From the IMG/VR virus record IMGVR_UViG_2617270967_000014: 40,547 nt of DNA, one strand, 5' to 3'. Position numbers: made by a program. This document shows, in pieces, positions 27,001 through 30,000 of this stretch. Each line of letters starts with the position of its first letter. Positions within the stretch are counted from its first letter, which is position 1. The stretch comes from a virus (lineage: Duplodnaviria; Heunggongvirae; Uroviricota; Caudoviricetes).

Positions 27001-30000
27001 TTTTCGAAATTCCTGTTCGGGCCAAAAAACGTCGATGCCTGCTGAACAAATTCAGTTCCCGCTTTCCCGGTAGCCTCCAGGTATCTTGCGTAACGCCTCA
27101 CGCCATCCAGCACGACATCCGGTGACACCCCTTCGCGTAATCTGGCCCTCCAGGCATTGAACGCGGATTTCTTCGGGTTTGACCCTGCCCGATGCGGATA
27201 TTCACGCCAGACCCGTTCGAACACGTCAGGATAATCAACTCGTCCCGCAGACGGTCCCGGCATCGCCCGGGTTAACCCAATCGGCTTCCCGCTCATCGCG
27301 GAATCGGCTTCAGGCTGCTGCGGTTGGCGTTGTTGCTCCGGTTCGACGATCAGCACCTGCTGCACACAACGCCCGGAATCTGCTTCCGGTGTCGTGCCAG
27401 CTGGTCCTGGACGTTCAGTCAGAACAGGACAAAAATCCCCCTGTGGGTCCGTGGCGATTTTTTCGCCATGGACCAGAAGGGTTTTATCCCTTTCCTGTTC
27501 TTGTTCCTGTTCCTGTTCTTGGCTTGAAAGGGGCTCTGAAGGGGCTTCAATTTTCCGACATGATTCACGTCTGACATCCAGGTGGAAATCATCCTTATAT
27601 CTATCATAAAAGGATGATAAAAAAGGATTTTCCAGCAACGCGGAATATTCATTTCTTACCCCAGCACAACGGTTATCGCCAGGTTTCAGCGATTCACCAA
27701 CCTGCCATGCTGCCATTTCATGCACCCATACAACCTCAGAATCATGGTCATAGCTGCAAAAACCAGCCTCGCAAGCCATTTGAAGCCCCTTAGAAGCCCC
27801 TTCAGGATCAAGTCCGGTTTCGTGAGCAATGTACAAAACAGGCAGGTAATAAAGGCCCAGCATATTGGAATGAGGCGAGGTCATCATATACAACGCCACT
27901 ACCATACTTTCCGGACCAGACTTCCTTAGTTTTCGCCCTGTATCGCCTAACCAGAACTGAGGTGAAATTGTTGCGTAATTACGCATAGTCCCCTCGCATA
28001 CAAGATTTACTCCATACCGCAGACGGTCCCGGTATCTCCCGGGTTAACCCAATCGGCTTCAGGCTGCTGCGGTTGGTGTGACTGCACATTGGTGTGACTG
28101 CACATCTTCACAGACGGTCCCGGTATCTCCGGGTTAACCCAATCGGCTTCAGGCTGCTGCGGTTGGTGTTGTTGCTGGCGAAATTCTTCCAGATGTGGCA
28201 GAATTATTCCCGTGTATTGCTCCATGCCCTGCCTGAATATCAGATGTTCATCAGGATTTGCTCAGAACGTCCGGCCCCAACCGGACGTTTTTTATTTGCA
28301 TGAACGTTAATGGCATGCTGGAAAGCCCGGCTGATCGGACTGATATCAGATGCCATCTGGAACGCGCATAAAATCGCCGCGATGTATCGCCAGTCGGTAC
28401 GACTGACCTTCGATTCATGGCAGCCAATCATCTTCGCCAGTCCCCTTTGCGTCAGAGCTGACAGGTTGATAAGTAAATCCGTTTCAGCGCGATCGATATC
28501 GCGCTGTGACAGTTTGCTGTAACTTGTTTGTGACATTTGTTAATTTTCCTATATTGATATGGGGTTAAGCGGCAATCCCCAATGGGTTTGCCACTGATGT
28601 TTGCTCACCCTGTTAGAGGTGAACGACCAGCAATGTTAAAGAGCGGTGTTACTTATTCAGCCTGGTTCGGATGAGGAAACAGGTGCGGTAAGTCCGGGCG
28701 AATTTCGTAAGCCTTAACCTGACCATTGGTGGCATTAACGATAGCGAAAACTTTTTCAGGAGAAACTTTTCCGCCTCGCAACCATTTATGAACAGCGGGC
28801 TGTGATACGCCGCAATCAGCTGCAAGTCGTTTTTGACTGCCAACAATATTCAAGGCTCGCTGAATCACTAAATTCATGAGCATACCTCTACAGCAAATAA
28901 AGCATAACCAAAAATAACATGAGTTATACACCAGGGCAATAACAATTGTTGTTTTACTTTTGATAACCGTGGTTATAGATTACAGGTATGAAAACATTCG
29001 CAGAAAGACTAAATGCCGCCATGAGTTCAGCCGGGTTGTCACAAGCACAACTTGCAGACATGGTGGGGGTATCACAACCAGCCATACAAAAGATGTCATC
29101 TGGTAAAACAACCGGATCACGTAAAATGGTCGAATTAGCCAACGCGTTAAGAGTTCGCCCTGAATGGCTAAGCTCTGGTATAGGGTCAATGAGACCACAG
29201 AGCGCAGAAGAGCCATCTAATGCTCGGGAATCATCTTTAAAAGCTATCGCCTGGGATGATCATCAAAATGATAATGAAGAATTTGTTGCGCTCCCCCTTC
29301 TAAATATTTCACTTTCAGCTGGCGGAGGAAGTTGTGCATTGGAGGAGTCCGCAGAATTCTCTCTAGTTTTTAGGCGCTATTACCTGAAAAAAATGGGAGT
29401 TCCAGAAAAAGCGGCAAAGTTGGTCAGGGTTGTTGGGCAAAGCATGGAGCCAACACTCCATGATGGTGATGTGGTGGGGGTAAACACGCAAGATACGAGC
29501 ATCAGGGATGGTAAAACATATGCAATTTGCCAAGCTGATTTGTTAAGGGTAAAAACGCTCATAGCCACGCCAACATCGGTAATTATCAGATCGATAAACC
29601 GCGAAGAGTATCCTGATGAAGTAATGAACAGAGAAGAATTCTACAAAAACGTAAGAATCATAGGGCGAGTGTTCTGGTCATCACATAGCTGGTAATCAGA
29701 CTCCAACTGAACTTTTGCTATAAGAACACTCACGAAGAACGGCCTTTTATTGTGCTCAATACCACCGATGGTAAACCATTCGCCAAGTAGCCAATTCATA
29801 AAATGCCATTTCTAAATCCCCCCGGCTCCAGTGCCGGGTTTTATTTACTTAATTACACAGTCGCATATCCTGAAGTAACACATCTATAGCTAACTTCACA
29901 GCGAGATCATCCAATTCATCATGGTGAAGCACTCGGATCATTCCCGCAATAGCATCTGCTGAAATAGCTTCCCCAGTAGCAATAACCTCAAGCAACGACA

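Follow-up and report, generated by a model that had tools for sequence, protein, structure and literature searches.

Upstream copies of initiator-linker DNA in an O104:H4-type Stx prophage, a probable recombination scar

Lambdoid phages keep their replication origin within the initiator gene, and iterons located inside this gene have precedents in lambda, P27 and 933W (PMC7466680). Lambdoid phages also recombine efficiently between short or diverged homologies (PMC2327257). The present analysis deals with a direct repeat, termed R, in a DNA stretch of 40,547 nucleotides (the window; IMG/VR record IMGVR_UViG_2617270967_000014) that is an O104:H4-type Stx prophage. R is found once in the gene of the replication initiator, rep (26904-27986, minus strand), and twice in the spacer between cII and rep. 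The distance from cII to the start of O is 33 nt in lambda; between cII and rep it is 253 nt here, most of it taken up by R copies. An original prediction, made from the window alone, had proposed that the repeats could be an accessory origin, an iteron-like array or a recombination scar. From sequence comparisons, the upstream repeats are probably a non-functional but recombinogenic scar of rep-linker DNA, lodged in the transcribed leader between cII/oop and rep.

The locus can be compared with several kinds of known systems. As for lambda-type origins, R derives from the initiator gene and rep contains origin-like AAGGGGCTT pairs that flank an AT-rich dip. R itself differs from such origins in its long units, irregular spacing, GC-rich composition and variable copy number, and it is not conserved with the N-domain of the initiator. 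As in the mosaic joints and partial duplications of lambdoid genomes, a fragment of a neighbouring gene lies at a module boundary, here that of cII/oop and rep, coding constraint is absent, the feature belongs to one recent lineage and carriers have different immunity regions on its left side. In contrast to ordinary mosaic joints, the presumed scar is itself tandemly amplified and still recombines with its parent copy in an essential gene, which yields many alleles and a replicon-killing deletion. Finally, like contingency repeat loci, the array changes its copy number and frame by slippage among close relatives, but its units are long (90 or 113 nt), no switched gene is evident and there is no sign of selection for switching. 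The repeat is a new instance of a familiar kind of feature and its significance is modest.

A repeat shared by the rep linker and the spacer

The three direct copies announced by the original prediction are real, as seen by a repeat search and MAFFT alignment, and the window holds no further copy of R. The intragenic copy (27245-27338, minus strand) is 94 nt long, encodes EQQRQPQQPEADSAMSGKPIGLTRAMPGPSAG in the linker of rep and is full-length, since it includes a segment of 23 nt that is missing from both upstream copies. The proximal upstream copy (28017-28079, minus strand) ends 30 nt before the rep start codon, and the distal one (28111-28176, minus strand) has GG where the other copies have GGG. 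Measured from start to start, the upstream copies are 90 nt apart, and they are identical (100%) over 41 nt (28039-28079 and 28129-28169). The repeat does not result from chance, because an exact repeat of 41 nt is impossible by chance in a 40-kb window. The intragenic copy is located 772 nt away and shares about 92% identity with the upstream ones.

The missing 23 nt had escaped the original prediction. In the intragenic copy, they sit between two GAAGCCGATT 10-mers that are 23 nt apart (27279-27290 and 27302-27313, spanning 27279-27313 on the minus strand). The shorter upstream form thus points to a deletion between the GAAGCCGATT 10-mers, which is the signature of slippage at short direct repeats. 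Through this 23-nt deletion and another of 1 nt, the upstream copies have lost the reading frame of rep. As expected of a scar, they are homologous to a nearby gene (27245-27338 of rep) outside its intact frame.

The two upstream copies are joined by a junction, J (28080-28110, minus strand), which contains a 16-nt tandem duplication. This duplication had been claimed as well and was detected by the program TRF at 28073-28105 (period 16, 2.1 copies, 100% matches). Its 16-mer, composed of TGTGCAG and TCACACCAA, resembles what immediately precedes R, on its 5' side, in rep linkers, both in this phage and in Tritos (GCAATCACACCAAC). J therefore looks linker-derived as well, so that the entire array would consist of linker DNA. 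On its two sides, R directly abuts X, the unique part of the spacer (28177-28239, minus strand), and the 30 nt that hold the rep ribosome-binding site.

Two short motifs were noticed in the same region. In J, CTGCACATCTTCACAG (28089-28104, plus strand) has the CTG-N10-CAG pattern of a LexA box core, perhaps by chance, and the single-copy alleles lack it. GTCAC, the core of the Tritos-type iteron (GTCACG/GTCACA), occurs inside each 16-mer (28073-28105) and is most simply a coincidence created at the joint of TGTGCAG and TCACACC. R was also considered as a dispersed mobile repeat and rejected: an exact search of viral contigs with its core matched this locus only, and species-representative genomes gave three chance matches in unrelated metagenome-assembled genomes. 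In the same way, DNA hairpins in the units were discarded as a cause of instability or as a function, with z values of -0.08 to -1.66 that are not significant.

Structural alleles and a proposed history of the array

The spacer was surveyed in 5,426 complete Escherichia coli genomes and in IMG/VR loci. X is present in 81 of these genomes, always at this locus and next to this cII and this rep. Within near-identical modules, the spacer exists as at least eight structural alleles that differ in the number of upstream copies (1, 2 or 3) and of 16-mers (one or two) and in the presence of the 23 nt. The allele of the window, R-J(16-mer x2)-R, is carried by at least 59 of the 81 E. coli genomes and by 28 IMG/VR loci. 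Two copies with only one 16-mer are found in the loci labelled L052 and L053, and L054 has a mixed array in which the distal copy retains the 23 nt. A single R is present in L001, L004, L017, L032 and L033, a hybrid single R in L055 and L056, and a single R with the 23 nt in L057. L002 bears three copies, all with the 23 nt and arranged at a period of 113 nt (98% matches).

The last allele, L003, is a deletion. In this locus, the left half is of upstream type and lacks the 23 nt, and the right half, to which it is fused, is of intragenic type. The N-terminal two thirds of rep have been lost, and what remains carries the annotation of a partial, frameshifted pseudogene. In E. coli, the rep N-domain was found in 78 genomes, as compared with 81 for the spacer segment. 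Apart from L003 and the single-copy L001, annotated as frameshifted, rep is intact (358-362 aa) in the inspected alleles. A comparison of copy number among related prophages had been suggested in the original prediction, and it reveals that copies vary freely from one to three while rep mostly remains intact. In addition, a variant of the L002 lineage, GATGCC for GAAGCC, occurs in both the upstream and the intragenic copies, which indicates exchange between copies, i.e. concerted evolution. Such structural polymorphism, with L003 as a recombinant between copies among the eight alleles, is what a scar made of recombining repeats should display and it supports the scar alternative of the original prediction. 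In agreement, distant relatives with the same gene family have neither the R linker nor an upstream copy, and homology to the Klebsiella relatives starts only at the rep ribosome-binding site.

Carriers differ in their immunity genes, to the left of cII, which implies that the cII-spacer-rep block travels among different lambdoid backgrounds. The same block was seen joined to at least four different cI/cro immunity regions (left flanks of L001, L002, L004 and L052-L057), and a mosaic boundary thus lies between cro and cII. Between the two clades, that of the window and that of L002/L057, X and R diverge by about 5-6%, as compared with 1.5% for the rep N-domain and 0% for the C-domain. J is present in both clades, and deletion of a unit by recombination between R copies removes J without a trace, so the multi-copy allele is probably older than the single-copy ones.

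These alleles fit a history in which an illegitimate join would have placed the linker segment R, along with part of its 5' flank, before the rep ribosome-binding site. This join could have arisen when the 772 nt reaching from the ribosome-binding site to R were duplicated in tandem and the first of the two N-domain copies was later lost; alternatively, modules exchanged at the pO boundary could have been joined illegitimately. Since then, as the alleles show, the segment has been unstable. Unequal crossover or slippage alters how many R-J units (1, 2 or 3) and how many 16-mers (1 or 2) are present. Slippage between the two 10-nt direct repeats deletes the 23 nt, and the G-run gains or loses one base. 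Copies exchange sequence with one another and with the intragenic copy. Finally, recombination between an upstream copy and the intragenic one deletes the N-domain together with the candidate iterons described below, and the replicon should thereby be inactivated.

Some observations weigh against this history. The comparison of alleles shows the segment behaving as an unstable repeat, but the founding join is inferred and was not observed. An extant ancestor, in which the N-terminus of the open reading frame (ORF) overlying the array would precede R and the C-domain in one gene, was found neither by tblastn against phages nor among 5.8 billion proteins. In a set of 22 two-copy loci (20 haplotypes), only 2 sites vary over the 253 nt of the spacer, as opposed to 27 sites in cII and about 24 within the 168 nt of the linker, a near-invariance that could mean constraint. 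Moreover, none of the 81 E. coli loci is without an upstream copy. The low diversity of the spacer has a neutral explanation too, since a structural allele of recent origin is expected to be uniform. In these two-copy loci, the part of rep encoding the C-domain is as invariant as the spacer, with the exception of one divergent locus, and diversity is patchy in this mosaic region. The persistence of a last upstream copy would also be explicable, as homologous recombination cannot remove it without destroying rep.

The scar reading has a few practical consequences. It removes a false lead, in that the repeats would not be an origin and the "hypothetical protein" of a PHROG family drawn over them would not be a gene. 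It also singles out, in O104:H4-type Stx phages, a hypervariable site of the replication region, where copy number, 16-mer, 23-nt segment and G-run could serve as a typing marker. A natural path to replicon inactivation emerges as well, since the 772-nt deletion from repeat to repeat takes away the candidate iterons along with the N-domain. A more useful by-product is that the origin of this replicon family can probably be located. It is a long shot that the R copies, lying on both sides of a stretch with the rep ribosome-binding site, the N-domain and the candidate iterons, act as portable homology arms through which lambdoid phages swap their origin-specificity cassette, or as a tunable, high-frequency route of replication loss. 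If the loss route were true, O104:H4-type Stx prophages would shed replication competence, and thus toxin amplification on induction, with copy number under selection.

A candidate origin inside rep and other readings of the array

The rep protein is made of an N-domain (residues 1 to about 160), a repeat-rich linker and a C-domain, the latter being common to many phage replication proteins with other N-domains. Two candidate iteron clusters were found in the gene. Cluster 1, GAAGGGGCTTC-TAAGGGGCTTC (27780-27803, minus strand), shows 11-bp phasing, and cluster 2 (27528-27550, plus strand) is formed by the same 9-mer pair inverted. Between them, GC content falls to 0.32-0.35 (27560-27650), the only AT-rich dip and a candidate unwinding element. 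Cluster 1 has an extra 11-nt unit in one IMG/VR locus. The relatives that share the N-domain are Klebsiella ST974-OXA48phi18.2 and ST846-OXA48phi9.2 (L008/L009), Escherichia phage Fraca (L010), Acinetobacter B1251 (L058) and Ralstonia NK-7 (L059). All five have AAGGGGCTT 9-mer pairs with 11-bp phasing, in two clusters 244-256 bp apart within the N-domain coding region. In the window, Acinetobacter and Ralstonia, cluster 2 has the inverted orientation, and in Klebsiella and Fraca the direct one, the frame being preserved (EAPSEPL versus EGASKGL).

Tritos (L005) provides the complementary case. Its rep is homologous to that of the window from residue 165 onwards (linker and C-domain, 64% identity), and the N-domains are unrelated. 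At places equivalent to the AAGGGGCTT clusters, it has GTCACG repeats with 10-bp phasing (1966-2004 and 2226-2274, 260 bp apart). Because these short phased repeats co-vary with the N-domain, as iterons should, the AAGGGGCTT pairs are likely iterons and, flanking the AT-rich dip inside rep, they likely constitute the true origin. No published account of the origin of this replicon family or of the repeats was found in the literature searched, which says of P13374-type phages only, in general terms, that their replication genes are unlike those of other Stx phages.

It is very unlikely that the R units upstream of rep contribute to initiation as binding sites of the initiator or of a host factor. 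R does derive from rep, the gene that houses the origin in lambdoid phages (PMC7466680 for lambda, P27 and 933W), GAAGCCGATT in R matches the inverted candidate iteron GAAGCCCCTTC at 9/11 positions, and the retention of at least one copy in 81/81 E. coli loci could speak for a role. Yet the units are not short phased copies: they measure 63-94 nt, are spaced by 90 nt in the window and 113 nt in L002, and number one to three with rep mostly intact. The array has a GC content of 0.55-0.62 across 28010-28190 with no AT-rich element next to it. R is missing from the Klebsiella, Acinetobacter and Ralstonia phages and from Fraca (L008/L009, L058, L059 and L010), where the AAGGGGCTT pairs are kept. 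Conversely, GAAGCCGATT is also present in the R-like linker of Tritos, whose N-domain and iterons (GTCACG) differ, and this suggests that these motifs track the linker and its PEADS peptide repeats and not the DNA-binding domain or its specificity. An origin function of the array is therefore not supported by its sequence, and the accessory origin or iteron-like array of the original prediction is not borne out. That prediction had itself named what would speak against it, and the comparison of relatives gives this picture, with upstream copies lacking and origin-like elements elsewhere. A cis-regulatory leader is a less remote alternative, although unlikely as well. The repeats would tune rep translation, for instance through the ORF that ends near the rep ribosome-binding site, or the pO/oop promoter, and copy number would set expression. 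It would suit this idea that the array lies in the leader transcribed from pR and abuts a region homologous to lambda pO/oop, that the ORF stops 20 nt before the rep ATG in the window and in single-copy alleles and a few bases into rep in others, and that the spacer is nearly invariant among two-copy loci. However, RNA folding of the leader is not significant relative to shuffled sequence (z = -0.40), neither a consensus promoter nor a terminator was found in the array, and the frame, length and stop of the ORF vary between alleles. Furthermore, the array is absent from more distant relatives and the divergence between clades looks neutral. A structured leader RNA or riboswitch was likewise rejected on the folding value; Rfam returned sub-threshold matches only, to the plant microRNA MIR7532 and to the prophage anti-small RNA AgvB (20.5 bits for a gathering threshold of 56 bits).

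The ORF in question spans X and the repeats (72 aa, 28007-28225, minus strand), contains QPQQPEADWVNP twice and is the basis of phrog_2751. It is most improbable that this ORF specifies a genuine small protein (42-76 aa) between cII and rep, even though an ATG-initiated ORF exists in every allele and the inspected annotated records label it as a hypothetical protein, forming a PHROG family. Over the first 28 codons, the window differs from the L002/L057 clade by 5 codons, with 0 synonymous and 5 non-synonymous differences, as opposed to 9 synonymous and 2 non-synonymous ones in cII. Hence, the overlapping ORF is devoid of purifying selection, as expected over a scar, and its frame and length are not conserved as those of a small protein should be: the C-terminal two thirds shift frame with each indel allele. 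Besides, its ATG falls in a stretch homologous to the 5' end of lambda oop, and the AGGG upstream of it is weak and closely spaced. A search of 5.8 billion proteins gave eleven matches, all from E. coli. Ten of them share the start of the ORF (MEQ...) over 38-76 aa and have tails in different frames with different ends; the eleventh is an 81-aa partial sequence from the rep linker, and none of the eleven continues into the C-domain. No homologue outside this locus was retrieved from these proteins or from phages. Since there is no synonymous excess, frame and length vary and the ATG lies in oop-like sequence, the ORF is by these comparisons not a gene, which bears out the earlier view of a spurious ORF with repeated QPQQPEADWVNP created by the upstream copies. 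A kinship between the start of the ORF and the 5' end of rep (MEQYTG.. versus MRNYAT..) was dismissed, as it was seen by eye only and is too short, and the lambda alignment puts this start in the oop 5' region. Lastly, short tandem repeats are open to mis-assembly, but a mis-assembled or collapsed repeat has a practically negligible probability here, given that 28 independent loci hold an identical 220-nt spacer stretch over the array and that the same structure recurs in many closed genomes and in four sequenced phages.

Gene layout and the cII 3' region

The array lies within a row of phage regulatory and replication genes. A cI-like repressor (28988-29695, plus strand) is followed by a Cro/YdaS-like gene (28653-28877, minus strand) and by cII (28240-28536, minus strand; Pfam Phage_CII, 6.5e-26). 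On the other side of the spacer, the 360-aa rep belongs to phrog_1701, "DnaD-like helicase loader" (3.9e-151), and its protein has zero matches in a Pfam search; next comes a DnaC-like loader (26157-26897, minus strand; IstB_IS21). The spacer region is 100% identical to prophages of several E. coli genomes. Its identity is 99.1% with the Stx2 prophage of the O104:H4 outbreak strains and 99.1-99.5% with phages PhiR5_2, phiSTEC1589-Stx1c, POCJ13 and 75/02 Stx.

X and the 3' end of cII align with the oop RNA of lambda, its terminator and the pO/O-start region, X itself covering the cII stop, the oop 5' end, pO and the start of O. Since the ATG of the ORF aligns with the oop 5' end and the adjoining bases with pO and the start of O, X is by its alignment an ordinary lambdoid cII/oop/pO region. 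An oop-like antisense RNA (28232-28297, plus strand) with clear homology to lambda oop overlaps the 3' end of cII and ends with an intrinsic terminator (28264-28297, plus strand) antisense to it. The promoter of this RNA should be located in X, adjoining the distal R copy. A promoter scan returned no consensus sigma-70 promoter for pO. In the alignment, read by eye, CAGAAT (28200-28205) occupies the position of the lambda -10 element CATAAT, but a TTGCTG candidate for the -35 element is 21 nt away.

The rep linker is also variable beyond R. A hexamer repeat, (CAGGAA)n (27487-27521), encodes its QEQEQE stretch and changes in length by multiples of 6 nt among relatives. PHROG families are split over rep, with phrog_25210 and phrog_12196 covering the N-domain only and phrog_18526 (157 aa) the linker and C-domain only. 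Frameshifts in the slippery linker may split rep in annotated phages, perhaps often; the copy of L001 is annotated as frameshifted.

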